Assembly: GCA_963997635.1 (NCBI GenBank)
Contig: CAXEND010000002.1
Location: forward strand, 52,848 to 116,847
Length of the DNA stretch: 64,000 nt
Source: an uncultured Rhodospirillaceae bacterium
GTDB lineage: Bacteria > Pseudomonadota > Alphaproteobacteria > UBA828
Reading direction: 5' to 3'
Both the position numbers and the translations under genes were made by a program. This document shows, one piece after another, positions 1 through 55,627 of the stretch (within the stretch, counting starts at the first letter, position 1; each line of letters opens with the position of its first letter). The notes under the pieces were generated by a model, which was not told where the DNA came from, did not search any database, and worked only from the letters and a program-made list of their open reading frames with translations.

Positions 1-807
1 TCTATATGTATTAAAAGGGCTTTCGGTAGCTAAATCATTCTTAGTCAATTTTCTACCCAGTTTTACTTTACCACCCGTAATCGAGTAAATTACGGTAGGG
101 TCAGACTGTAGTAGCATGTTAAGTCTGAGTCGATTTAAAAATACTGCAGAGATTATTGGCCTCTCGTTTTCACGGCCAGTCTCCATCTCTATAATAGATG
201 CCATAATAACTGCATCTGCTGGTTTTTTATAAGGCAAATTTTCTTTTCGATCTTTCCATAATTCTTTAAGAGTATTATTCATTGCAATCTTCATACGATC
301 AATGATTGATTGCCGCGAATCACCAAATTGAAAACTATATGTCTCAGGTAAAAGCGACCCCTCTTCGGGAACCTCGAATACATCCCCAACTAAAGCTTTA
401 TTCAAAATTATCTGTTTAATCACGGCATCACTGGTTATGCCCTCAGTAAAGGTTATATTTCTTCTAACAACATCACCTCCTTCAATTTTTAGCATTACAT
501 CGTGTGCTGATATTCCCTTGTCAAATTTATATTCACCTGCTTTTAATTGCCCGCTAACTCCATTAATCCAGACTCCATAGGTAAAAATATATGCGTTAGA
601 TATTACTCCAGATGAAGATAGATTTTCAGCAATCTCCTCAGTACCTATTCCAGGAGTAATAACAAATGTCTTTGGCTGTTCAAGGGGGCCAGGTTGTTTA
701 AACTCGTTAATGATATATAGATAAGCAGCAAGTAGACAGAAAAGACTAGTACTAACGAACCCAAAAAATAATATAAAAAAAATCTTACGTCTTAGAAGTA
801 TTTTCAT
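1..807 (-). CDS. mltG: Endolytic murein transglycosylase MltG/YceG family. The N-terminal 269 codons are present and the C-terminus runs off the left edge.
   Basis: Not in the ORF track because it is open at the window edge. My minus-strand translation from the ATG at 805-807 gives MKILLRRKIFFILFFGFVSTSLFCLLAAYLYIINEFKQPGPLEQPKTFVITPGIGTEEIAENLSSSGVI..., and near position 1 ...NMLLQSDPTVIYSITGGKVKLGRKLTKNDLATESPFNTYR. It has an N-terminal TM anchor plus LQSDPTVIY and SP(F/Y)NTY motifs typical of YceG/MltG. It lies directly downstream of fabF. Confidence 0.85.
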   Translation of the reverse strand, partial: MKILLRRKIFFILFFGFVSTSLFCLLAAYLYIINEFKQPGPLEQPKTFVITPGIGTEEIAENLSSSGVISNAYIFTYGVWINGVSGQLKAGEYKFDKGISAHDVMLKIEGGDVVRRNITFTEGITSDAVIKQIILNKALVGDVFEVPEEGSLLPETYSFQFGDSRQSIIDRMKIAMNNTLKELWKDRKENLPYKKPADAVIMASIIEMETGRENERPIISAVFLNRLRLNMLLQSDPTVIYSITGGKVKLGRKLTKNDLATESPFNTYR

Positions 808-23573: not shown

Positions 23574-23694
23574 TTAAGGTCTCACTATTAAATATAGTTG
23601 CATAATATCTATTGATTCCCTTTGCTAGATCTAACCTAGATGATTACCATATTTATAAGTTCATTTAAGAAAAAAATTACAGGGTTAATTGATA

Positions 23695-25914
23695 ATGACA
23701 AGTAGTTCTATACCTATTATTGGCTATACTGACAAACTATCAGCTCGTCCTGGAGAAACAATAGCCTTTAAGGTTAGTTGTTCCAGTCCACAAAAATATT
23801 ACGCAAATCTAGTAAGGGTAATTTCATGTGACCCTAATCCAAAAGGGCCTGGCATTCAGGAAGAAAAATTAGAGTCCAATTTTGATGGTGTTTATCAAGG
23901 AAAACCACAAAACATTTGCCTTGGCTCAGCAATCAGAGTTACAGAAACTAATTCACTAGACACCCTTAAGTCCTTTACTTTAATTGCGACTATCTGGCCA
24001 ACTAGACCTCAAGCAGGCTTACAAGGAATAATTACACGTAGAGAAGTAAAGGGTAATAGTGGTTTCGGGTTAGCTATAAATACTAAAGGGGCATGTGCTA
24101 TTTTAGGCGGATTGGAAATTTCTGTTGGTATGCCCCTTATAGAAAGACGATGGTATAGGATATGGATGAGTTATAATTCCTCAACAGGAACTGTTACGGT
24201 AGGGCAAAAACCACTTTCTAAACAAATTGATGCTGAGGATGAAGGTTTTTGTGAGGCTGTAACTAAAGTAAAGAATAACTTTATTGGTTCAGGAGATCTA
24301 TTAATAGCAGCTTTTCGAGGTGAGCCTAGAAGTGCCCATTATAATGGAAAGATTGAAAGTCCCATAATTCTCGAAACGGCCATTAATGAGAAAAAAATGT
24401 CTTTAATGACATTAAATGAACTTCAAAAAATAGCATTTGCTTATTGGGACTTTTCTCAAGAAATTAGTAGTCCCAACATAATAGATTCTGGACCTCATGG
24501 TCTTGATGGTTACATAGAAAACCTACCCACGAGGGCTATGACTAGTTCAGAGTGGGATAATAGTTCACATGACTGGACAAAAAAAACCCAACATTACTCA
24601 GCTATTCATTTTCATGAAGATGACATATACGATTGTGGGTGGAATACGGATTTCGTTTTTACTGTACCAGATGAATTTAAAAGCGGAATTTACGCAGCTC
24701 GACTTGAAACAGATTCTGGGGAGAAGGAGATGGTTCCCTTCTTCGTTCCGGCAAAGAAAAATAAGCCTCAATCCCGAATATGTATTCTAATTCCTACGTT
24801 TACATACATAGTCTATGGAAATATTTCACGAGGAAATTCAACTTATAAAGATGATGGATCATTGGCCAAAAAAATAAAAGACTGGGGTGCATGGCCATAT
24901 AATTGTGATGAACATAAAGAGTTTGGTTTATCTACATATAACGATCATACTGATGGAAGTGGTATTTGTACCGCTTCTTTTCTACGACCAATTATCACTA
25001 TGAGAACGGCAACAGTTTCTTACCCAGATGTACCAGGGTCGGGTTTGCGGCATTTCGCAGCTGATGCACACCTATGGTTTTGGCTTGAAAAAATGGGCTA
25101 TGACTTTGACATCATAACAGATCATGAACTACACCATGAAGGTATTAACTCAATAAAAAATTATGACATTGTAATGACACCTTCACACCCAGAATATCAC
25201 ACAACGGAGACTCTTGATGCACTTCAAGCCTATATAGAAGAAGGTGGTCACTTTATGTACTTAGGAGGAAATGGTTTTTATTGGAAAGTGGCTCTTAATA
25301 AAAATTTTCCTGGTGCTGTTGAAATTCGTCGTGCTGAAGGTGGTATTAGACTATGGGCTTCAGAGCCTGGCGAGTACTATAATGCATTTGATGGTACTTA
25401 CGGAGGTATGTGGCGAAGAAATGGTCGTCCTCCACAAAATTTATGCGGCATTGGTTTTACTGCTCAAGGAAAACATTTTGGAGATCCTTATCGTCGCACT
25501 GCGGCCTCGCGAGACCCCTTATACGCATGGATTTTTGAAGGAATAAAAGATGATATTATAGGAAATTTTGGATTATCAGGGGGTGGTGCAGCAGGTTTTG
25601 AACTTGACCGTGCTGATGTAAAATTAGGAACCCCTCTTAATGCTGTTGTTTTAGCAACCTCTGAAGGTCACGGTAAGCATTTTGGACTAGTACCAGAAGA
25701 AATTCTTATGACCAATATGTTAGCTTGGAACGGCGAGCCTTATGATGACCTCATCCGTGCTGATATTGTTTATTTTGATACACCAAAGGGTGGAGCAGTT
25801 TTTGCTGTAGGCTCAATTACTTATTGTGGATCTCTGCCTTACAATAATTGCAAGAACAACATCTCGCAGCTCACCAAAAATGTGATCGATAGATTTCTAA
25901 AAGAAAAAAATTAA
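23695..25914 (+). CDS. N,N-dimethylformamidase large-subunit-like protein (LamG-like N-domain plus DUF6605-type C-domain)
   Basis: About 740 aa. The segments IIGYTDKLSARPGETIAFKVS, AHYNGKIESP, HFHEDDIYDCGWNTDFVFTVPDEFKSGIY, LSTYNDHTDGSG, SHPEYHT, GGGAAGFELDR and NNISQLTKNVIDRF closely parallel the Paracoccus/Methylobacterium DMFase large subunit as I remember it. Start is ATG 23695 (the track uses TTG 23689). Confidence 0.7.
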   Translation: MTSSSIPIIGYTDKLSARPGETIAFKVSCSSPQKYYANLVRVISCDPNPKGPGIQEEKLESNFDGVYQGKPQNICLGSAIRVTETNSLDTLKSFTLIATIWPTRPQAGLQGIITRREVKGNSGFGLAINTKGACAILGGLEISVGMPLIERRWYRIWMSYNSSTGTVTVGQKPLSKQIDAEDEGFCEAVTKVKNNFIGSGDLLIAAFRGEPRSAHYNGKIESPIILETAINEKKMSLMTLNELQKIAFAYWDFSQEISSPNIIDSGPHGLDGYIENLPTRAMTSSEWDNSSHDWTKKTQHYSAIHFHEDDIYDCGWNTDFVFTVPDEFKSGIYAARLETDSGEKEMVPFFVPAKKNKPQSRICILIPTFTYIVYGNISRGNSTYKDDGSLAKKIKDWGAWPYNCDEHKEFGLSTYNDHTDGSGICTASFLRPIITMRTATVSYPDVPGSGLRHFAADAHLWFWLEKMGYDFDIITDHELHHEGINSIKNYDIVMTPSHPEYHTTETLDALQAYIEEGGHFMYLGGNGFYWKVALNKNFPGAVEIRRAEGGIRLWASEPGEYYNAFDGTYGGMWRRNGRPPQNLCGIGFTAQGKHFGDPYRRTAASRDPLYAWIFEGIKDDIIGNFGLSGGGAAGFELDRADVKLGTPLNAVVLATSEGHGKHFGLVPEEILMTNMLAWNGEPYDDLIRADIVYFDTPKGGAVFAVGSITYCGSLPYNNCKNNISQLTKNVIDRFLKEKN

Positions 25915-30137: not shown

Positions 30138-32006
30138 CTAGAACGCTTTTGCCGACCCTTCCCTATACTTGTTAGATGGCACGAAACCAGTCATCTGGGG
30201 TGCTCGTGCGTCAGAGACCCAGAGCTCTCTGTCGGGGTGCATGCCAGCCCCGAATACGGCTGAGACAGCCGAACGTCGCATCCTGTTTAGTAGACGTGTA
30301 TCTGCATCACCAATTGCCGGGTGAGTGCCACCATTATCCGCCACCGCTTTGTCCCAGCTTGCCTTGCGGGAGGAAAGTGTTGAGTTATTGTCGAGCTGTA
30401 AACAGTTTATTTCGTTACTATTCAGATCAACAACTATGTCGTCGCCATCCTCAATATAGGCAATCGGTCCCCCAAGTGCGGCTTCTGGGCCAACATGACC
30501 GATCACTAGACCGACAGAACCGCCAGAGAATCGTGCATCAGTCATTAGGCCCACCACGATCTCTTTCTGTCGGCACAACGTGGTTATACGCGAAGTAGAG
30601 TCGAGCATTTCTGGCATACCTGGTGCGCCACTTGGGCCTTCGTAGCGGACGATAATCATATCGTTATTTTCAAAGACCTCCGATTGGTTCTCAAGTGCGT
30701 TAAGTAGTTCCGCTTCGCTGTTGAAGACCCGTGCTTTACCAGTAAAAATATTATTCTCAAGTCCACCTTCGAGACCTGCGAGTTTCAGCACAGCACTAAA
30801 CTCTGGCGACAAATTTCCACCAAGCACGCGGAGACCGCCCGTCGGCTTGAAGGGTTTCTCTACAGAGTAAATGACCTCACCATCTGGCACTGGTGGATCA
30901 AGACGTACGATCTGTTCCGTTAAAGTTTCACCTGTGCAGGTCATGGCTTCACCGTTTAGCAGTCCAGCTTCGAGAAGTTCCTTGACTATAACCTGAATGC
31001 CACCCTTCTCGTCGATGTCAACCATCGAATATTTCCCAAATGGCCGTGCGTTGATAAGCACTGGCACCACGTGTTGCGAAAGGTAGTTGAACTCCTCTGG
31101 CGACATGATGTCTTTCTTGAAGCTACTAAAGCCCGCAGCACGGGCAATCTCTGGGCCGTGCAATAGAACATTGGTCGACCCACCTACGGCCATGGCAACA
31201 ATCATTGCATTGCGAATCGAATCGCGATTGACAATCTTACGCGGTGAGAGATCCTTGGATATCAGTGCATCAAGATAGGATACCAACTCGTCTGGATACT
31301 GCTCCATACGCCGCGGGTCATCCGATGGTGGAGAGACCATGTGAAGTGGCTCCATACCGACGACGGCGATAAAGGTCTGCATTGTGTTGTAAGTGAACAT
31401 GCCCCCACAGCTTCCATAGCCTGGGCACGCCTCGCAAGCGACGCGTTTCTTCATCTCTTCATCGGAGCTCCCAGCGACTTGAAATCCAGTTATGATGTCG
31501 ATCGGCTCTTTGGTGACAGAGTCAAGACCTGGGCGGATCGGCCCATCCGACATAATTATCGAAGGGCGGTCGTGTTCGAGCAAGGCTGCCAGCGTGCCTA
31601 CTGGCGGCTTGTCACAGGCCACTATAGCAATAGTACCTTCCAGTCCGCTGGCACTGAGATGTTCGGTTATTGTATCGTTTGTGACTTCGCGGCCAATTAG
31701 CGAATACCGCATTTCACGCGTGCCGTTGCGCATGCCATCGGAGGTCGCAACAGAATATTCTGGTTGTACTAAACGCACGCGCATCTGTCCTTCATTCTGT
31801 CCAATTCGTTTGCGTAGACATTCCTGAATTCTCTCGACCTTGCGTTGCACTCCCAAATAACACTGGGAATCTCCCTTGTTACCCACGACGCCGACCGATG
31901 GTTCGTGAATGAGTTCGATATCGGTACCCAGTTCCCGTGCTATTCCGAACGTCTGTGCGTTACGCCCTGGATTGTTGTCGAAAAGAACTGTTCTAAAATT
32001 TCGCAC
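30138..32006 (-). CDS. IlvD/Edd-family dehydratase (divergent, 622 aa), compositionally foreign
   Basis: VACDKPPVG, DGPIRPG, CPGYGSCGGMFTYNTMQ, GGSTN, RFSGGS and GPEAALGGPIA match dihydroxy-acid / sugar-acid dehydratase motifs. GTG start preceded by GGGGAG. GC is clearly higher than in the neighbours, and the gene carries many long antisense shadow ORFs. Confidence 0.85.
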   Translation of the reverse strand: MRNFRTVLFDNNPGRNAQTFGIARELGTDIELIHEPSVGVVGNKGDSQCYLGVQRKVERIQECLRKRIGQNEGQMRVRLVQPEYSVATSDGMRNGTREMRYSLIGREVTNDTITEHLSASGLEGTIAIVACDKPPVGTLAALLEHDRPSIIMSDGPIRPGLDSVTKEPIDIITGFQVAGSSDEEMKKRVACEACPGYGSCGGMFTYNTMQTFIAVVGMEPLHMVSPPSDDPRRMEQYPDELVSYLDALISKDLSPRKIVNRDSIRNAMIVAMAVGGSTNVLLHGPEIARAAGFSSFKKDIMSPEEFNYLSQHVVPVLINARPFGKYSMVDIDEKGGIQVIVKELLEAGLLNGEAMTCTGETLTEQIVRLDPPVPDGEVIYSVEKPFKPTGGLRVLGGNLSPEFSAVLKLAGLEGGLENNIFTGKARVFNSEAELLNALENQSEVFENNDMIIVRYEGPSGAPGMPEMLDSTSRITTLCRQKEIVVGLMTDARFSGGSVGLVIGHVGPEAALGGPIAYIEDGDDIVVDLNSNEINCLQLDNNSTLSSRKASWDKAVADNGGTHPAIGDADTRLLNRMRRSAVSAVFGAGMHPDRELWVSDARAPQMTGFVPSNKYREGSAKAF

Positions 32007-49385: not shown

Positions 49386-50441
49386 TCACGGGAGTACTTT
49401 TCTGACGCGAAACTCAGAAAAAAGACTAAGAAACATCTCCTCTGTATCTACTATCTCAGTAAACCCCCTATCTATTCGCTTGGCATCAGACATTAATACA
49501 TCCCAACTTGTATCCATATTGAAGTCAAAGTATGGCCAACCTGCTGTCTTGTCGTAAGGGAGCCTTAAAAGATTGTTTTTCTCAACTATTTGCTCCCAAA
49601 TTCTTCCTTTATCAGGCATGACGTCAGATGATATAATACGCTGCGGTTGTCCAACCTCCATACCAAAATGAGCAGCCCAATCTGACCATACGTTAATATA
49701 TCTGAAACCATCTCCATTTGTGATATTAAATATCTCATTTCCTGCATTTTGACTTGTTGCAGCCCACACAGTCATTCGAGCCAATAATCCAGAATCCGTA
49801 ACCTGATTAATTGCTTCAAAGCCACCTATCTCACCAGGATATTTCAATGGCATTCCGAGCTCTTTAGAAATAGCCGCATATACACCAAAACACATTATTA
49901 AATTCATTGGATTTCCAACAGCAAAACCACAAACTGCCTCTGGCCTCAAAACAGACCATGTCCAATTTTTCCCTTTTTGAAATTCGATCAAAAAATCTTC
50001 TTGGTCATAGTAAAAATTTGGTGGCATATGGCGAGAGTCACTCTCAAAGGCGGGTGTTTTAAACGGACCTAACTGACGTCCATATGCCTTGCTACCCTCC
50101 TGTAGAACTACACGCTGCAAATCTTTAGAAATATTAGATATGGCCTCAACGGGATTTGCAACAAGTAGTTTATTTGGCTCCGTATTTGTAGCATCTATAC
50201 CTCCATGTAATGCACAACAGAATACGTGAGTAATATCACTTAGAGATGAAAATTTATTTTCAGTTTGTTTCATATCAAGTAAATCGCATGATATGTATTT
50301 AGCTTTTTTTGCCATTTCTTGATCTGGTTCACGCCTCGAAACAGCAGTAATGTCCCAATCTTCAAGGGTGGAAAGATGATTGATCAAGTTGCGGCCAATT
50401 ACACCCAACCCCCCGATAACCAGAGCTTTATTTTTTGCCAT
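49386..50441 (-). CDS. Extended SDR of the PRISE type (progesterone-5beta-reductase / iridoid-synthase-like enone reductase)
   Basis: ALVIGGLGVIGRNL Rossmann motif, PPNFYYDQED motif, WSVLRPEAVCGFA, and NITNGD...W. The pattern matches bacterial homologues of plant P5betaR as I recall them. Lies 35 nt downstream of the monooxygenase reductase gene on the same strand. Confidence 0.7.
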   Translation of the reverse strand: MAKNKALVIGGLGVIGRNLINHLSTLEDWDITAVSRREPDQEMAKKAKYISCDLLDMKQTENKFSSLSDITHVFCCALHGGIDATNTEPNKLLVANPVEAISNISKDLQRVVLQEGSKAYGRQLGPFKTPAFESDSRHMPPNFYYDQEDFLIEFQKGKNWTWSVLRPEAVCGFAVGNPMNLIMCFGVYAAISKELGMPLKYPGEIGGFEAINQVTDSGLLARMTVWAATSQNAGNEIFNITNGDGFRYINVWSDWAAHFGMEVGQPQRIISSDVMPDKGRIWEQIVEKNNLLRLPYDKTAGWPYFDFNMDTSWDVLMSDAKRIDRGFTEIVDTEEMFLSLFSEFRVRKVLP

Positions 50442-50476: not shown

Positions 50477-51484
50477 CTAATAAAATTGGTCATAACGGAT
50501 ATTTTCTATTGGGACTTGACGTTCTATGATCAAACCTCTACGCAAACTTTCTATCATCTGTGGTGGGCCAGCCATATAATAATCAAAACTTTTATAAACT
50601 TCTTTGCCCTCAAAACTCTCAAATAAAAATTTGTCCAGCATACCCTTATTGCCTGTCCAGCTTGATTCTGGTTCAGAAACAATATTACTGTATATAATTT
50701 CTGCAGAGGAACGAATGGTATCTACCACATAATCTTTATGTATAATATCTCTTGATGTTCGGCATCCATAATAAAGCCTCAAGGAAGACTGTGCTAAGGT
50801 TTTTTTGTAATATCCAGAGGCAATAGATAGCATTGCGCCAATACCAGCCCCTCCAGCCAAACAAATAATGGGGCGTTCACTATTGATCCTGAGCCATGCA
50901 TGGCCATAAGGTCCATCGATAATAATTTGATCTCCTATGGCTGCTCTATCAAAAAACCAAAATGTTCCCTTGCCGCCTTTCACTCGTTTTACAATAAAAC
51001 ACCAATAACCATCTGAATTAACCATATTACTCATCGATAAAGCACGTACACCTTCTACACCCGGCAAATTTAATAAAGCATACTGACCGGGTAAAAATTT
51101 TGGCGGTGTATATGAAAAAAACTTAAATTCTGCCATATCATGAGTCAGGTGCGTAATCTTGACTAATTTGGCAGCAAACTTTTTTGGAGGATCAATTTCT
51201 TTGTCAACAGAGTTTGTTCTAATTTTAATCCTACAATCGCTAGTTGGCCTAGTCTGACAACCTAGCATCCGTTGTTTCTTCTTATCTCTTGGATTAATAG
51301 CAGGAGCATCTAGCCAGAGTTGCTCAACTGTGCCTGATAAAAGCTGATATCGGCACATTCCACATGATCCTACGTTACATTCATAAGGAAACCCTAAACC
51401 CTCACGAAGAGCAGCACGAAGAAGAGTATCGTCTTGATCACATAAATAACTTGATTCTTCTGTTTCAATAGTAATTCGAGGCAT
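50477..51484 (-). CDS. Soluble di-iron monooxygenase NADH:ferredoxin oxidoreductase component (TmoF/IsoF-like)
   Basis: N-terminal plant-type 2Fe-2S domain (CNVGSCGMC...GC), then an FNR-like FAD domain (RALSMS) and NAD domain (CLAGGAGIGAM). 335 aa. Confidence 0.88.
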   Translation of the reverse strand: MPRITIETEESSYLCDQDDTLLRAALREGLGFPYECNVGSCGMCRYQLLSGTVEQLWLDAPAINPRDKKKQRMLGCQTRPTSDCRIKIRTNSVDKEIDPPKKFAAKLVKITHLTHDMAEFKFFSYTPPKFLPGQYALLNLPGVEGVRALSMSNMVNSDGYWCFIVKRVKGGKGTFWFFDRAAIGDQIIIDGPYGHAWLRINSERPIICLAGGAGIGAMLSIASGYYKKTLAQSSLRLYYGCRTSRDIIHKDYVVDTIRSSAEIIYSNIVSEPESSWTGNKGMLDKFLFESFEGKEVYKSFDYYMAGPPQMIESLRRGLIIERQVPIENIRYDQFY

Positions 51485-51504
51485 TACAGGAGCTCATTTC
51501 ATCG

Positions 51505-52491
51505 TTAAAGCCCTATTGATTGCCGCCATTCTTTAACAGCAATTTTAGCTTCAGAGGATGCTTCAGGACTATCAGGTAAACCATCACAATAGAGCTCAAT
51601 GGCCGAATCTCCTAATGGTTCCCATTTTTTTATCCACTCCTCAAGGATAGTTCTATTACCTTCTATATTAAGTGCAAATTCTACTAATGCCTTGGTCCAT
51701 CTTCTAGATCTTTCACTATCCAGCATCTGAGCATCATTTAGTAAAGCCAATAACATATCTCCGTTACGCCTAGATGCTTTCCCCAGCTGACGAATAAATG
51801 CTTCATCTATAGCTGGCTTAGCTATTAAATTAAGGGCTACAAAATGCTCTGCCCAATCATAAGTAACGAGCGTACGTTCCATTAACTTCCGAAAGCCCTG
51901 CCAAGAAGGATCCTTTTCCCAACGATTTCTTTCTTGCCCACCAAAATCAAGATTCGCAAATGACTTTTGCAGTTCTTTTGTTCTGTAGGAGATACGGGAT
52001 ATCCAACGCAATTGATCTGCAGCCTGTAACATTGCACAATTCTCTATCGTGCTAGCAGGCACCATTTGTACTAGATACGCTGAGCCCATTTGCATAGTAT
52101 GTATGAGATATCTAGCTGGTGTATAAGATTTTGCTAAACATTCTAACCAATCTTTCCCATACCCAGTATCATGCTCGTTTCGGTTATGCTCATCAAGCAA
52201 TCCATCAACATAGGTTTCTTGGCCATCCTGCTTAATATTATAAGTTCTGTATACTAATTCATCTGGGTCACGAAAAGCATCCCAATCTTCATGTTTTAAT
52301 GGACTTTGATTTCGATATTTAAGGTACCATTTATTCATATCTATATTTGGAGATAATGCCCATGGCATGTCACCGTCAGTACTCCAAAGGAGATTAGTCG
52401 AAACAATCTCATACTCGCTTGGCCTTCTACGTTGACCTGCCAAGTGACTCCATGTTTTTAATGGTTTCAATTCATTTGAATCATTTGCCAA
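51505..52491 (-). CDS. Soluble di-iron monooxygenase hydroxylase beta subunit (TmoE/IsoE-like)
   Basis: 328 aa all-helical protein of ferritin-like length without EXXH ligands. Its position and size match TmoE (327 aa). TTG start with AGGAGG 6 nt upstream. Confidence 0.85.
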   Translation of the reverse strand: MANDSNELKPLKTWSHLAGQRRRPSEYEIVSTNLLWSTDGDMPWALSPNIDMNKWYLKYRNQSPLKHEDWDAFRDPDELVYRTYNIKQDGQETYVDGLLDEHNRNEHDTGYGKDWLECLAKSYTPARYLIHTMQMGSAYLVQMVPASTIENCAMLQAADQLRWISRISYRTKELQKSFANLDFGGQERNRWEKDPSWQGFRKLMERTLVTYDWAEHFVALNLIAKPAIDEAFIRQLGKASRRNGDMLLALLNDAQMLDSERSRRWTKALVEFALNIEGNRTILEEWIKKWEPLGDSAIELYCDGLPDSPEASSEAKIAVKEWRQSIGL

Positions 52492-52521
52492 ATGTAAGCC
52501 TCCTTTTTAAGTCCTTTTATT

Positions 52522-52821
52522 TCAGAGACTTCGCTCCAAAAAAAACCTTATCTGATTATCCGTAGTTTCTACACGGCCGGAGAAGGACGTAAGATCAAGT
52601 TCGAGCTCAGTAATTGAAAAAGGGCGGCCCATATATTTGCTGAGAGTTTCCTTACGAATGATACATTCACCTTCTGTCTCAATTCTTACATATGATACTT
52701 TATCGTCAATCACAAATTTTCTACCTGGATTATCTTCTTGAATTGCTTCTATAACAGCATCAGCCACTTCACCTGTTCGTAAAACTGGCCCTACAGAATT
52801 ACTACGCTCATTATCAGTCAC
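52522..52821 (-). CDS. Monooxygenase effector/coupling protein (TmoD/MmoB/DmpM family)
   Basis: 99 aa. VGPVLRTGEVADAVIEAIQEDNPG...SYVRIETEGECII...GRPFSITELELDLTSFSGR...IRF parallels T4MO TmoD as I recall it. GTG start with AGGAGA. Confidence 0.88.
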   Translation of the reverse strand: MTDNERSNSVGPVLRTGEVADAVIEAIQEDNPGRKFVIDDKVSYVRIETEGECIIRKETLSKYMGRPFSITELELDLTSFSGRVETTDNQIRFFLERSL

Positions 52822-52841
52822 AAAGTTCTCCTAACTTTGAT

Positions 52842-53177
52842 TTAAGCTAATGTGAATTTAGGCTCTATCCCTTTTGTATCAACAAAAATATCTTCACCAT
52901 CAACACGTACTGGGTATTTTGCTACTTCGGCATGGGTGGGATTGATTCCTTCTCCACTTGATACATCAAACTGCCATAGATGCATACTACACGTTAAAAC
53001 CTTTCCCTCAAGACTACCATTTACCAACTCTACTTCTTGATGCGGACAAATAGACTGAATGGCATGTATGCTCCCATCATCCAAATGAATCAACAATACT
53101 TCTGTACCGCTTACCTCGAAGTTCTCCATTTCCCCTTGCCAGAGATCATCAAGACTACATACTCTCTCGAATGCCAT
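52842..53177 (-). CDS. Rieske-type [2Fe-2S] ferredoxin (TmoC/IsoC-like)
   Basis: 111 aa. CPHQ (CxH) and CSMHLWQF (CxxH) ligand motifs. MAFERVCSLDDLWQGEMENFE resembles the TmoC N-terminus. Confidence 0.9.
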   Translation of the reverse strand: MAFERVCSLDDLWQGEMENFEVSGTEVLLIHLDDGSIHAIQSICPHQEVELVNGSLEGKVLTCSMHLWQFDVSSGEGINPTHAEVAKYPVRVDGEDIFVDTKGIEPKFTLA

Positions 53178-53182
53178 GATAA

Positions 53183-53458
53183 TTAACTTTCAGGATCAGA
53201 AAAATATACATCTACACAATCATACATAATTAAACCTGCTTCACCGACAGTTATATCCCCTCTTAATGGTGGCTGATCGTCAGTATCAGAGGTTTTTCTG
53301 ACCCTAAGAACCTTTCCAGGTTGGTCCTTAACATGAATACCTATAGAGTGAGAAGCACAATTCATAGCTAATTGCGTGATTGTCTCTCCCACATCTGTTT
53401 CTACAACTTTAACATGGCAGTCATATTGGAAACGTGAAAGAATCGGAAATTTATCCAT
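53183..53458 (-). CDS. Hydroxylase gamma subunit, TmoB-like
   Basis: 91 aa. FPI...F..D..VKVV..D...TI.QLA.....H...........LRVRK....PL..D.TV.EAGL....VDVYF follows the T4MO TmoB pattern. Confidence 0.8.
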   Translation of the reverse strand: MDKFPILSRFQYDCHVKVVETDVGETITQLAMNCASHSIGIHVKDQPGKVLRVRKTSDTDDQPPLRGDITVGEAGLIMYDCVDVYFSDPES

Positions 53459-53467
53459 TCTTAAATC

Positions 53468-54964
53468 TTACTCGGCTGCAGCAGATCTAAAACCTTCGAT
53501 CCACTGATAATTGTAACCATCCCGACCACCTTCGCTTACAACACCTATTCCCATATACTTCAAAACTCCATCGAGATCAGGTGGTTGAATTTCACCAGAA
53601 TACATTCTGTCAACAATTGTCTCGTGATCCTTATATCTATTTGGGTCTGTAGTGAAGATCCACCTACAAGGTTCAGTACAAAAATTGTATCGCCTACCTT
53701 CATGTTCAAACTGATATGGACGAGCTTTCCAAGCCTTCCCAGGACGATTCGAAATAGGGATTTGACACATGTTACAAATAATCGGGACACATTCAGGATG
53801 AGTTTTTTCCTCCCGATCAGCTAGAAGATTTTCTGTTATTACATCCCAGTATGTTCCATAGCTATCATTCCATCCTGGGTATTTTTTCTCCAACCATTGG
53901 CGTTCTTTAGGGCCTACAGCTCCTGGCGGATTCCACCAAACTGTTGGTCTCCAAGACCATATACCACCTTGCTGACAATGATGATGATTTTCTATATCGT
54001 CAAGGAAATGCTGCCAATACCATGGCTTTGCTAAACCTAAATCCTCTACTTGCCTAACATACTGACGATTTACCCATTCATGCATAAATTCCTTGAAAGA
54101 CATGTGACGTTGTTCGAGTGGAATATAATAATCCATCGGTATGCCAACTGAGACAGAAAAAAGTCTCCAAACGCGCCAAAAAGCAATATCTAATATTTTC
54201 TGAGCATCCTCTTTGTAACCGTTTCTAACCATAATTTCGATTGTAGGTGTACCTAGTTGGGCATGACGTGCTTCATCTGATTGAATACTTGTAATAAGAT
54301 TTGAAAATGTGAAATCTCCCATATTAGCAGCATCTGTAGAAAGCCCAATCATTTGCAAGTTTGTTAAACCTGTTTCAAAGGCAAAAGATACCATCAAAGA
54401 TCCTGTTACAGCATCCCTACACATCATTATATCGTCCATAGCATGACGACCGCCTATAACCGCCCAATTATTAGTGTGAGCTGCCTCATGAGCCCAATCA
54501 TATTGCCTATCACGGTGAACTAATTCATGAGGAAAAAACAACTGCAACTGAGCGTGCCTCATTTCATCGAGCATACCAAAGGTAGCCATGTTACGCATAG
54601 ATGGTGAAGGCCCAAATCTGACCATACGAGCCTGAAACTGGCATGCCTGATATTCAGTTAACGCTACTGTACCGTAATGAAGTTTGAGTACGCTTGCCCA
54701 ACCTTCACAAGCCTGATCGTAAAAACGCGAACGAGATAATGCAGCTTTTACAGAATAAGCCGAGCCATCTTTTTCTCTCTGTGTTCTAACATATTCACGA
54801 AAAGATACCTTGTATGGCTCATCGAATGTTTCCCATTCATCTATAGGTATTTGATATGGGTCACTCATGGTAGGAGGAAACAAATTTTCCTGAGAAACAT
54901 ATGTAGGAGTCCAATTAGTATCACGTGCTATGTCGTACCACTCATTACGCTCTAATAAAGCCAA
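53468..54964 (-). CDS. Soluble di-iron monooxygenase hydroxylase alpha subunit (TmoA/IsoA/XamoA-type, group 2 SDIMO)
   Basis: 498 aa. Di-iron ligands E104 (ALTEY), E134/H137 (LDEMRHAQ), E197 (FETG), E231/H234 (SDEARHAQ) and T201. High similarity by eye to T4MO TmoA along the whole length. TTG start with GGGAGG upstream. Confidence 0.93.
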   Translation of the reverse strand: MALLERNEWYDIARDTNWTPTYVSQENLFPPTMSDPYQIPIDEWETFDEPYKVSFREYVRTQREKDGSAYSVKAALSRSRFYDQACEGWASVLKLHYGTVALTEYQACQFQARMVRFGPSPSMRNMATFGMLDEMRHAQLQLFFPHELVHRDRQYDWAHEAAHTNNWAVIGGRHAMDDIMMCRDAVTGSLMVSFAFETGLTNLQMIGLSTDAANMGDFTFSNLITSIQSDEARHAQLGTPTIEIMVRNGYKEDAQKILDIAFWRVWRLFSVSVGIPMDYYIPLEQRHMSFKEFMHEWVNRQYVRQVEDLGLAKPWYWQHFLDDIENHHHCQQGGIWSWRPTVWWNPPGAVGPKERQWLEKKYPGWNDSYGTYWDVITENLLADREEKTHPECVPIICNMCQIPISNRPGKAWKARPYQFEHEGRRYNFCTEPCRWIFTTDPNRYKDHETIVDRMYSGEIQPPDLDGVLKYMGIGVVSEGGRDGYNYQWIEGFRSAAAE

Positions 54965-55627
54965 TTAAACCTCCCTACTTAGTACTAGATTAAGTATGCT
55001 AGAAAAATAACTTACTAAAAATGGCATCAGCAAAATTATCTCTTTTTGGGATTATTTTTATATATTGAAACATGTTATAGTTAACGAGACAAATTTAAAA
55101 ACATATCGATTTCATTATATAGTGATTATAAATTTATTTCTAGAAAACTAAATTGTATTATAGAAAAAGTGTTGACATTATTACGTATTCCTGCATTCCC
55201 CCAATATAAGTTTGCTCTTTAAAGAGGAATATTGTTCACAATACTACCTTCTTATTGTCTTCAGTAGACTAATTAAGCGTGAAATTTGTAATATTTTTAT
55301 GTTTTACTTGCTTGCAATAAAAAAAACATTATATTTCAATAACTTATAAATTATGCCTAATTTTTAGGCACTTCGGTTTAAGGCTATGATTTCCAGTTAC
55401 CTAAGGGCAACTTGCCCTACTTCCCCACAGGGTTATCCACAAGCTCAGTGGAAACCAAAATCTACCTTTCTAATACTTGTAAAGGTATCATGGAAGTATC
55501 TGATTCTACATGATTGATTACTAAATACTAGCACATTGACTGAGACCCTTCTTTGGGCAAATCTAGATAGGGCTAGTTCAACAGACCAATATTTAGGTTA
55601 ATAAAAAAATACTTTAAGAGATACCAA

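Follow-up and report, generated by a model that had tools for sequence, protein, structure and literature searches.

An apparent seven-gene operon in an uncultured Rhodospirillaceae bacterium (contig CAXEND010000002.1 of assembly GCA_963997635.1) joins a complete soluble di-iron monooxygenase (SDIMO) of the toluene monooxygenase (TMO) family to a gene for a reductase of the progesterone 5beta-reductase/iridoid synthase-like (PRISE) family. The operon lies on the minus strand of a 64-kb stretch of the contig, which was analyzed as a whole and is referred to here as the window. On balance, we favor the reading in which the two enzymes form an oxidation-then-reduction module, with a small aromatic or phenolic compound as a somewhat more likely substrate than an alkene. 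What is new is an uncharacterized clade of TMO-family enzymes with a conserved PRISE partner. No description of the SDIMO-PRISE pairing, or of this clade of alpha subunits from marine bacterioplankton, was found in the literature.

The Monooxygenase Gene Cluster

The original prediction, made from the sequence, placed six tightly packed minus-strand genes at positions 50477–54964, and the open reading frame (ORF) map bears this out, with a Pfam family assigned to the product of each. The first gene (53468–54964) encodes the hydroxylase alpha subunit, a TmoA/TouA-like protein of 498 aa that initiates at a TTG codon with GGGAGG ahead of it, and that matches PF02332 (1e-71) and carries a C-terminal YHS domain. 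It is followed by a TmoB-like gamma subunit (53183–53458; 91 aa; PF06234, E 4.8e-17), a gene that comes after alpha in all clade loci, and by a TmoC-like Rieske-type [2Fe-2S] ferredoxin (52842–53177; 111 aa; PF00355, E 4.8e-19) in which the cluster-ligand motifs CPH...CSMH are seen. Next are an effector, or coupling, protein of the TmoD/MmoB/DmpM family (52522–52821; 99 aa; PF02406, E 1.1e-28), a TmoE-like hydroxylase beta subunit (51505–52491; 328 aa; PF02332, E 2e-68), and a TmoF-like NADH:ferredoxin oxidoreductase (50477–51484; 335 aa) comprised of Fer2, FAD_binding_6 and NAD_binding_1 domains, with a plant-type 2Fe-2S center.

The successive intergenic gaps are 9, 5, 20, 30 and 20 nt, and a ribosome-binding site precedes each gene. 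All six genes are full length, no subunit is truncated, and the di-iron ligands are intact. Gene order and domain content agree with the predicted tmoABCDEF arrangement of a four-component, toluene-monooxygenase-type SDIMO. The succession of alpha, gamma, Rieske, effector, beta and reductase is the defining order of the TMO group (PMC11825192). Such enzymes make up group 2 in the scheme of Leahy and Notomista, which is the same as “group 1” of Holmes and Coleman.

For comparison, roughly 45 related loci (designated by L-numbers) were examined by gene neighborhood, using precomputed gene calls, since six-frame ORF clustering proved too noisy in relatives of 65–71% GC. Among these, the reductase gene is found in the cluster only in the window and in the L001 and L078 lineages; in most relatives the PRISE gene directly follows beta. 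The reductase is also the least conserved subunit (64% identity to L001). Its Fer2 cluster cysteines are present, but the FAD motif RxYS reads RALS and the NAD motif GGxGxxP reads GGAGIGA. Both variants are common to L001, and L078 reads RAFS. The idea that PRISE replaces the missing reductase in the relatives was rejected on chemical grounds: as a short-chain dehydrogenase/reductase (SDR), it has neither the flavin nor the Fe-S center required for one-electron transfer.

The Alpha Subunit and Its Clade

The alpha subunit aligns end to end with TouA of toluene/o-xylene monooxygenase (ToMO; 1T0Q, E 1.8e-197) and with TmoA of toluene 4-monooxygenase (T4MO; 3DHG, E 5e-194). Matches in the PDB to phenol hydroxylase (8e-44) and soluble methane monooxygenase (~1e-12) are weaker, and no sequence in the PDB or on annotated plasmids is more than ~57% identical to alpha. 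The di-iron ligands named in the original prediction (E104, E134, H137, E197, E231 and H234), together with T201, carry the same numbers in the alignment to TouA 1T0Q. The ligands fall in two EX(28–36)EXXH motifs, and they and T201 are invariant in all 38 members of the clade described below; N202 and Q228 are conserved in alpha as well. A multicomponent phenol hydroxylase (DmpKLMNOP) was considered and set aside, as both a TmoB and a Rieske component are present and alpha is only 28% identical to DmpN.

A neighbor-joining tree was built from 109 alpha subunits (495 columns, 200 bootstraps) with DmpN as the outgroup. TouA alone represented the solved structures, and XamoA and the IsoA-annotated ELW1 enzyme stood in for the alkene monooxygenases. 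The window's alpha subunit belongs to a 38-leaf clade (bootstrap 99), the members of which are all from uncultured aquatic Alphaproteobacteria. This clade sits within a 70-leaf assemblage (bootstrap 99) that also holds an enzyme encoded on a Mycobacterium THAF192 plasmid, proteins labeled Reyranella and Pseudonocardia, and paralogous copies termed alpha'. We know of no characterized member of this assemblage. Classical TMOs of the TouA type join after it, leaving the clade outside the characterized TouA-type subgroup, and enzymes of the dioxane-degrader type, and XamoA plus the ELW1 enzyme, join last (bootstraps 86 and 91), the alkene pair at the deepest node of the ingroup (bootstrap 91). Alpha therefore does not nest within a characterized clade of this tree. 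Most sequences of the TMO group are of unknown function (PMC11825192).

One member of the sister assemblage, L066, is a tmoABCDE cluster on plasmid pTHAF192_b of Mycobacterium sp. THAF192, a marine-aquarium isolate. Its neighbors encode a RutB-like amidohydrolase, an allophanate hydrolase, a purine-type permease and a molybdopterin enzyme that carries the annotation acetylene hydratase, a setting that suggests metabolism of N-heterocycles rather than of hydrocarbons.

Residues of the aromatic type (Q141, R183, F196 and W266) are kept in the alpha clade, Q141 and F196 in 38 of 38 members. The corresponding residues in XamoA and the IsoA-like enzyme are D141, A183 and L/V196. Nine other pocket positions are fixed across the clade in a form unlike that of classical TMOs (V100, T103, Q106, F110, M176, V192, L200, L203 and M205), as is N214 at the channel. 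Engineering of T4MO and ToMO has shown that positions 100, 103, 176 and 205 are among those that control specificity. Since several of the re-fixed positions are of this kind, alpha would appear, from its sequence, to be TMO-like in its chemistry and not tuned like a toluene enzyme. The positions corresponding to TouA 141 and 196 are D147 and V202 in IsoA (PMC12917321).

The PRISE Gene

The monooxygenase genes are followed, on the same strand and 35 nt downstream of the reductase gene, by a seventh ORF (49386–50441, minus) with its own ribosome-binding site (AAGGGAGG). No terminator-like site was found in the 35-nt gap. The 351-aa product is an extended SDR of the PRISE family and a predicted NADPH-dependent 1,4-enone reductase. 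It matches PF22917 with 69 bits against a cutoff of 27, and residues 3–349 align with iridoid synthase from Catharanthus roseus (CrISY; 5COA, E 6.8e-50); progesterone 5beta-reductases are matched as well. The N-terminal dinucleotide motif (GGLGVIG), the catalytic Lys (EGSKAY) and the catalytic Tyr (NFYYDQED) are all kept in the alignment to CrISY, where their counterparts are K146 (GxKxY) and Y178 (NFYY/H), numbers derived from the chain offset. A six-residue deletion falls exactly at the loop that carries the “phenylalanine clamp” of the plant enzymes (CrISY F149/F152). This loss bears on substrate preference, not on membership in the family.

Plants are believed to have acquired the PRISE/VEP1 family by transfer from Alphaproteobacteria, and we know of no bacterial member with a known substrate. 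Enzymes of the family reduce the activated C=C bond of 1,4-enones, including small reactive ones such as methyl vinyl ketone (PMC8778713). Bacterial VEP1/PRISE homologs were recorded by Tarrio et al., who proposed no function for them (PMC3144213).

The original prediction held that the usual partners of such a monooxygenase are absent from the window. This stands in so far as the window has no canonical pathway partner, but it overlooked a conserved enone reductase as the seventh gene of the operon. For the chemistry downstream of the monooxygenase, PRISE is the best clue at present.

Conservation of the SDIMO-PRISE Linkage

A PRISE gene is situated directly downstream of SDIMO genes in at least 13 lineages that range in GC content from 38 to 70%, with gaps of 16–40 nt (the window, L001, L003, L005, L007, L010, L011/L079, L032, L033, L055, L072, L073 and L078). 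The SDIMO-linked PRISE proteins are 77–90% identical and constitute a tight orthogroup (78–89%); the homologs next in line, 63% and 56% identical, do not lie near an SDIMO. The flanks of the module vary, and include uvrC and fhs; Abhydrolase_11 plus a 2-oxoglutarate (2OG) oxygenase; or an ATP-binding cassette (ABC) importer plus Rieske and LigB dioxygenases. No protein of the region is better conserved between the window and L001 than alpha (93% identity), and PRISE comes second (90%); FTHFS (86%) and UvrB (81%) rank below them, and the flanking housekeeping proteins share 60–86% identity.

One alternative is that the operon encodes a canonical catabolic enzyme converting toluene or benzene to cresol or phenol, with the ring-cleavage genes and regulator elsewhere in the genome and PRISE as an unrelated neighbor. 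ToMO and T4MO are indeed the closest solved structures (~57% identity), biogenic benzene and toluene occur in the sea (PMC9882975), and PRISE is not nearby in many clade loci. These points are opposed by the adjacency of PRISE in at least 13 lineages, in several unrelated contexts and at short spacing, by its being conserved to the same degree as alpha, and by the clade-wide re-fixing of the nine pocket positions that tune specificity. In addition, no meta- or ortho-cleavage genes were found in the window. We regard this alternative as unlikely.

Several relatives have additional genes. In L011/L079, an ABC importer is located ahead of the module, and genes for a Rieske ring-hydroxylating and a LigB-type ring-cleavage dioxygenase lie after it; in L009, genes for a solute-binding protein (SBP) and a SnoaL-like protein occur inside the operon. 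Sporadic as they are, these genes hint at a substrate that could be aromatic and could enter by active import. One subclade (L003, L007, L032, L055, L072 and L073) has a 2OG/Fe(II) oxygenase gene directly after PRISE (L003:14556–15581; L072:8113–9153), and among PDB entries its product best matches 9OVH, which bears the name “ethylene/succinate-forming enzyme” (E 9e-49). Upstream, this subclade has a divergent Abhydrolase_11 gene (L072:2533–3162), then genes for a PaaK-like ligase, EamA exporters, and a GlnA-like protein resembling gamma-glutamyl-amine synthetase. As pointers to a pathway these accessory genes were discarded, as they match no known pathway and none occurs in the window.

A different organization is seen in high-GC relatives (L008, L012–L023, L025, L026, L035 and L063), where the operon consists of alpha, TmoB, Rieske and effector genes only, with no beta. 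A paralogous alpha'-TmoB'-beta set, in which alpha' is 65–68% identical to alpha, is encoded elsewhere (L074/L075), divergently adjacent (L023), or in tandem (L030:5259–10602; L031:544–5881). In the two tandem loci alpha' is fused to TmoB' (605–612 aa). Apparently, two alpha-gamma pairs share one beta subunit, ferredoxin and effector in these organisms.

Residency and Host

The same arrangement, uvrC...[operon]...fhs, is found in L001 (GC 38%, alpha 93% identical) and in L002/L078 (GC 57–58%, alpha 87% identical, with an extra Usp gene). GC content of the operon is 0.38–0.41, and GC at third codon positions (GC3) is 0.24–0.32, compared with a GC3 of 0.21–0.28 for the flanking genes. UvrB of the window is 80% identical to that of the L001 lineage, after which identity falls to ~70%. 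The metagenome-assembled genomes (MAGs) that are nearest by UvrB at this level are also carriers of the alpha clade, and their alpha subunits are 80–82% identical to that of the window. Given the shared uvrC...fhs context, the host-like GC3 and an alpha subunit more conserved than UvrB, the operon is resident, vertically inherited and under strong constraint. That it is resident had been proposed from its place between fhs and uvrC and its base composition; synteny in three lineages, and an alpha phylogeny that tracks the UvrB relatives, now add to this.

The opposite possibility is an island of genes that is in decay or was transferred recently, and that serves no function at present. Consistent with this are the poorly conserved reductase with its atypical cofactor motifs and an operon GC3 slightly above that of the flanking genes. 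Such an island would not be expected to keep seven intact ORFs with ribosome-binding sites, to show alpha and PRISE identities to L001 that exceed those of the flanking housekeeping proteins, or to retain its uvrC...fhs position in three lineages spanning 38–58% GC. Moreover, an identical alpha protein is encoded on 8 contigs from independent assemblies. Conservation and synteny, as read from these comparisons, effectively refute decay, and we consider it extremely improbable.

The window encodes GcrA, an alphaproteobacterial marker. Judging from the drop in UvrB identity from 80% to ~70%, and a value of 69% for Parvibaculum, the closest cultured genus, the host is an uncultured, deeply branching lineage. 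A SAR116 host is not supported; the UvrB relatives are MAGs labeled Alphaproteobacteria or “Rhodospirillaceae”, and the nearest cultured relative is Parvibaculum. The L001 contig (PAWF01000010.1) is titled “Gammaproteobacteria bacterium”, yet it is syntenic with the window over >20 kb at 60–93% protein identity, and its label is probably wrong.

Pfam scans of the other ORFs detected no extradiol or intradiol dioxygenase, glutathione transferase (GST), coenzyme M (CoM) enzyme, sigma-54 activator, TmoST-like pair or FadL/TodX channel in the 64-kb window. The predicted lack of a canonical downstream pathway, dedicated regulator and channel is thus upheld for this stretch, in which only housekeeping genes were seen. 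Searches for pathway genes covered the window and the flanks of the related loci. Regulators in the window are limited to a generic LysR ~10 kb away on the downstream side, a MarR, and an OmpR/HisKA pair, the last two 6–8 kb upstream of the operon. Remaining genes include fabFGD, rpsF/R, rplI, dnaB, radA, purF, der, bamB, guaAB, trxB, uvrB/C, fhs, folB and moa/moe/mob.

Proposed Mechanism and Substrate

By homology with T4MO and ToMO, electrons would pass from NADH to the Fer2-FAD reductase, then to the Rieske ferredoxin, and on to an (alpha-beta-gamma)2 hydroxylase, with the effector protein gating oxygen activation at the carboxylate-bridged di-iron site. The monooxygenase would insert one oxygen atom into a small substrate. 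Since PRISE reduces C=C bonds that are in conjugation with a carbonyl group, the product of the monooxygenase is proposed to lead to an enone or enal: the oxygenated compound, or a tautomer, rearranged or further-oxidized form of it, would be an alpha,beta-unsaturated carbonyl compound. PRISE would then saturate the conjugated C=C bond in an NADPH-dependent step, and thereby either feed metabolism or remove a reactive electrophile. Gene content and integrity, the ligands, the clade-specific pocket, the conserved linkage, vertical inheritance and constraint are established by the comparisons; the electron path, co-transcription, the order of oxidation and reduction, and the substrate class are inferred.

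A number of observations weigh against such a module. TMO products are phenols and epoxides, not enones, and an extra step has to be assumed. The reductase is the only subunit with non-canonical cofactor motifs. With the clamp loop deleted, substrate data from plant PRISE enzymes may not transfer to the window protein. Co-transcription of the seven genes is suggested by their spacing only. A 79% identical PRISE ortholog occurs in L080 with no SDIMO within the DNA examined, and about two dozen clade loci, mainly of the high-GC subclade, have no PRISE nearby. Finally, no activity data were found for members of the alpha clade or for any bacterial PRISE enzyme.

The most likely substrate is a small aromatic or phenolic compound, possibly heteroaromatic, that occurs in the dissolved or volatile organic matter of the sea; toluene itself or an alkene is less likely. 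As a class, aromatic, phenolic and heteroaromatic compounds together have, in our estimate, a little less than an even chance; alkenes or dienes are a good deal less probable, and the remainder falls to something else.

Alkenes merit consideration, as the original prediction described the enzyme as of the isoprene-monooxygenase type and gave alkenes prominence. In that scheme, an alkene or isoprene monooxygenase would form a vinyl epoxide that rearranges to an unsaturated aldehyde or ketone, which PRISE would then reduce by a route independent of glutathione and CoM. TMO-family enzymes epoxidize alkenes, the bulky pocket residue F110 parallels M110 of alkene monooxygenases, and an enone reductase would be chemically sensible after rearrangement of a vinyl epoxide. 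The scheme needs no GST or CoM genes, and none are in the window. Propene, isoprene and isobutene are listed as growth substrates in the TMO group (PMC11825192), and seawater bacteria without iso genes consume isoprene (PMC9300024). Against this, alpha is only 43–45% identical to XamoA and the IsoA-annotated enzyme and branches apart from them, and it has Q141 and F196 in place of the D141 and V/L196 of alkene monooxygenases (PMC12917321). Furthermore, none of the ~45 related loci has a linked epoxide-handling gene (isoGHIJ, epoxyalkane-CoM transferase, epoxide hydrolase or isomerase). The isoprene-monooxygenase label is therefore not retained, and we do not expect the operon to be of this kind.

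A further alternative is a hydroxylase for a polar, imported aromatic or heteroaromatic compound, either hydroxypyridine- or pyridone-like or polyphenolic, in which case PRISE would reduce the unsaturated lactam or keto-tautomer ring and no ring-cleavage dioxygenase would be needed. Uptake genes occur in or near the operon of some relatives (the SBP and SnoaL-like genes of L009; the ABC importer of L011/L079), and sister-clade clusters adjoin genes for isochorismatase/RutB-type amidohydrolases, an SBP, a purine-type permease and allophanate hydrolase. SDIMOs that act on N-heteroaromatics are known, namely HpdABCDE and PmlABCDEF (PMC8313251), and for reductive dearomatization of polyphenols by an SDR, phloroglucinol reductase is cited in a preprint (bioRxiv 10.64898/2026.07.17.739263). 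On the other hand, transporter linkage is sporadic, the window has no such accessory genes, and the likeness to Hpd and Pml is one of description, not of sequence. We view this as quite improbable.

More speculatively, the SDIMO-PRISE pair could be an unrecognized two-enzyme route by which an uncultured, order-level marine alphaproteobacterial lineage, including genome-streamlined open-ocean members, consumes an abundant marine volatile or dissolved compound without glutathione, CoM or ring-cleavage chemistry. Candidates would be isoprene or another conjugated diene, by way of an epoxide, an enal and its reduction, or else a (hetero)aromatic compound that is hydroxylated and then reductively dearomatized. 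We regard this reading as unlikely. If true, a bacterial PRISE/VEP1 enzyme would have a physiological role assigned to it for the first time.

The alpha clade is vertically inherited, is conserved above the level of UvrB, and has been kept complete, together with its own reductase, in an open-ocean MAG of 38% GC. This suggests that the monooxygenase matters to the cell and is not an accessory trait for pollutant degradation. The PRISE partner also makes the question of substrate a testable one, as whatever the oxidation yields must give rise to an alpha,beta-unsaturated carbonyl. Should a marine volatile of climate relevance (benzene, toluene, isoprene or a product of their oxidation) prove to be the substrate, a sink organism and its marker genes would have been identified.

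The Upstream Region and Other Features of the Window

The operon is separated from the divergent uvrC by a 663-nt intergenic region (54965–55627) that probably contains the operon promoter, along with a conserved non-coding block. The best sigma-70-like match on the minus strand is TAGAAA-17-TATAAT (55142..55114), with a match count not above that of shuffled sequences. No sigma-54 promoter was seen by eye upstream of the operon, and no Usp pseudogene was found in the 663-nt gap. The block itself (55321–55518; ~200 nt) is 80% identical to its L001 counterpart, holds the window's only perfect DnaA box (TTATCCACA, 55433–55441), and may be a control region of the operon. A replication origin, riboswitch or small RNA was considered for this block and rejected, in view of the single DnaA box, the lack of an Rfam match, and a fold z of -1.7.

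Two other genes deserve mention. A gene for an ILVD_EDD-family dehydratase (30138–32006, minus) has a GC content of 0.51 and a GC3 of 0.51, compared with a GC3 of 0.15–0.32 for every other gene checked, and is probably a recent acquisition within this core region. A second gene, at 23689–25914 (plus), lies near genes for an EamA transporter and an amidase; its 741-aa product has a C-terminal domain resembling N,N-dimethylformamidase (DMFA2_C, E 2e-94) and may be relevant to small-amide metabolism.

Comparison with Known Systems

The nearest characterized systems are ToMO of Pseudomonas stutzeri OX1 (TouABCDEF; 1T0Q) and T4MO of P. mendocina KR1 (TmoABCDEF; 3DHG), which possess the same six components in the same order. 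Their alpha subunits are of nearly equal length to that of the window (498–500 vs. 498 aa) at ~57% identity, and the C-terminal YHS domain is found in the window alpha too. The di-iron ligands, T201, N202, Q228, Q141 and F196 are common to all three. In contrast, the window alpha differs from ToMO and T4MO by I100V, E/G103T, A106Q, A110F, F176M, L192V, F200L, M203L, F205M and E214N. Its operon also has PRISE appended, and lacks a linked phenol hydroxylase, meta-cleavage pathway, TouR/TmoST regulator or TodX/TbuX channel.

IsoABCDEF and XamoABCDEF (Xanthobacter Py2) likewise share the six-gene order and component types of the window. Their alpha subunits, at 43–45% identity, have D141, A183, T/N192 and V/L196, and their operons are always linked to epoxide-processing genes (isoGHIJ/aldH, a CoM pathway or an aldehyde dehydrogenase), none of which occurs at the window operon.

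HpdABCDE (2-hydroxypyridine 5-monooxygenase) and PmlABCDEF set a precedent for di-iron monooxygenases that act on water-soluble non-hydrocarbons (PMC8313251). Their subunit orders and compositions differ from those of the window, to which they are likened by description, not by sequence.

As for the seventh gene, the plant PRISE enzymes (C. roseus iridoid synthase, 5COA; Digitalis lanata progesterone 5beta-reductase, 2V6G; and AtStR1/VEP1, 6EL3) are homologous to the window protein over its full length and have the NADPH-binding and catalytic motifs in common with it. The window protein differs from them in being bacterial, in being operon-linked to an SDIMO, and in having shed the gate-phenylalanine loop.

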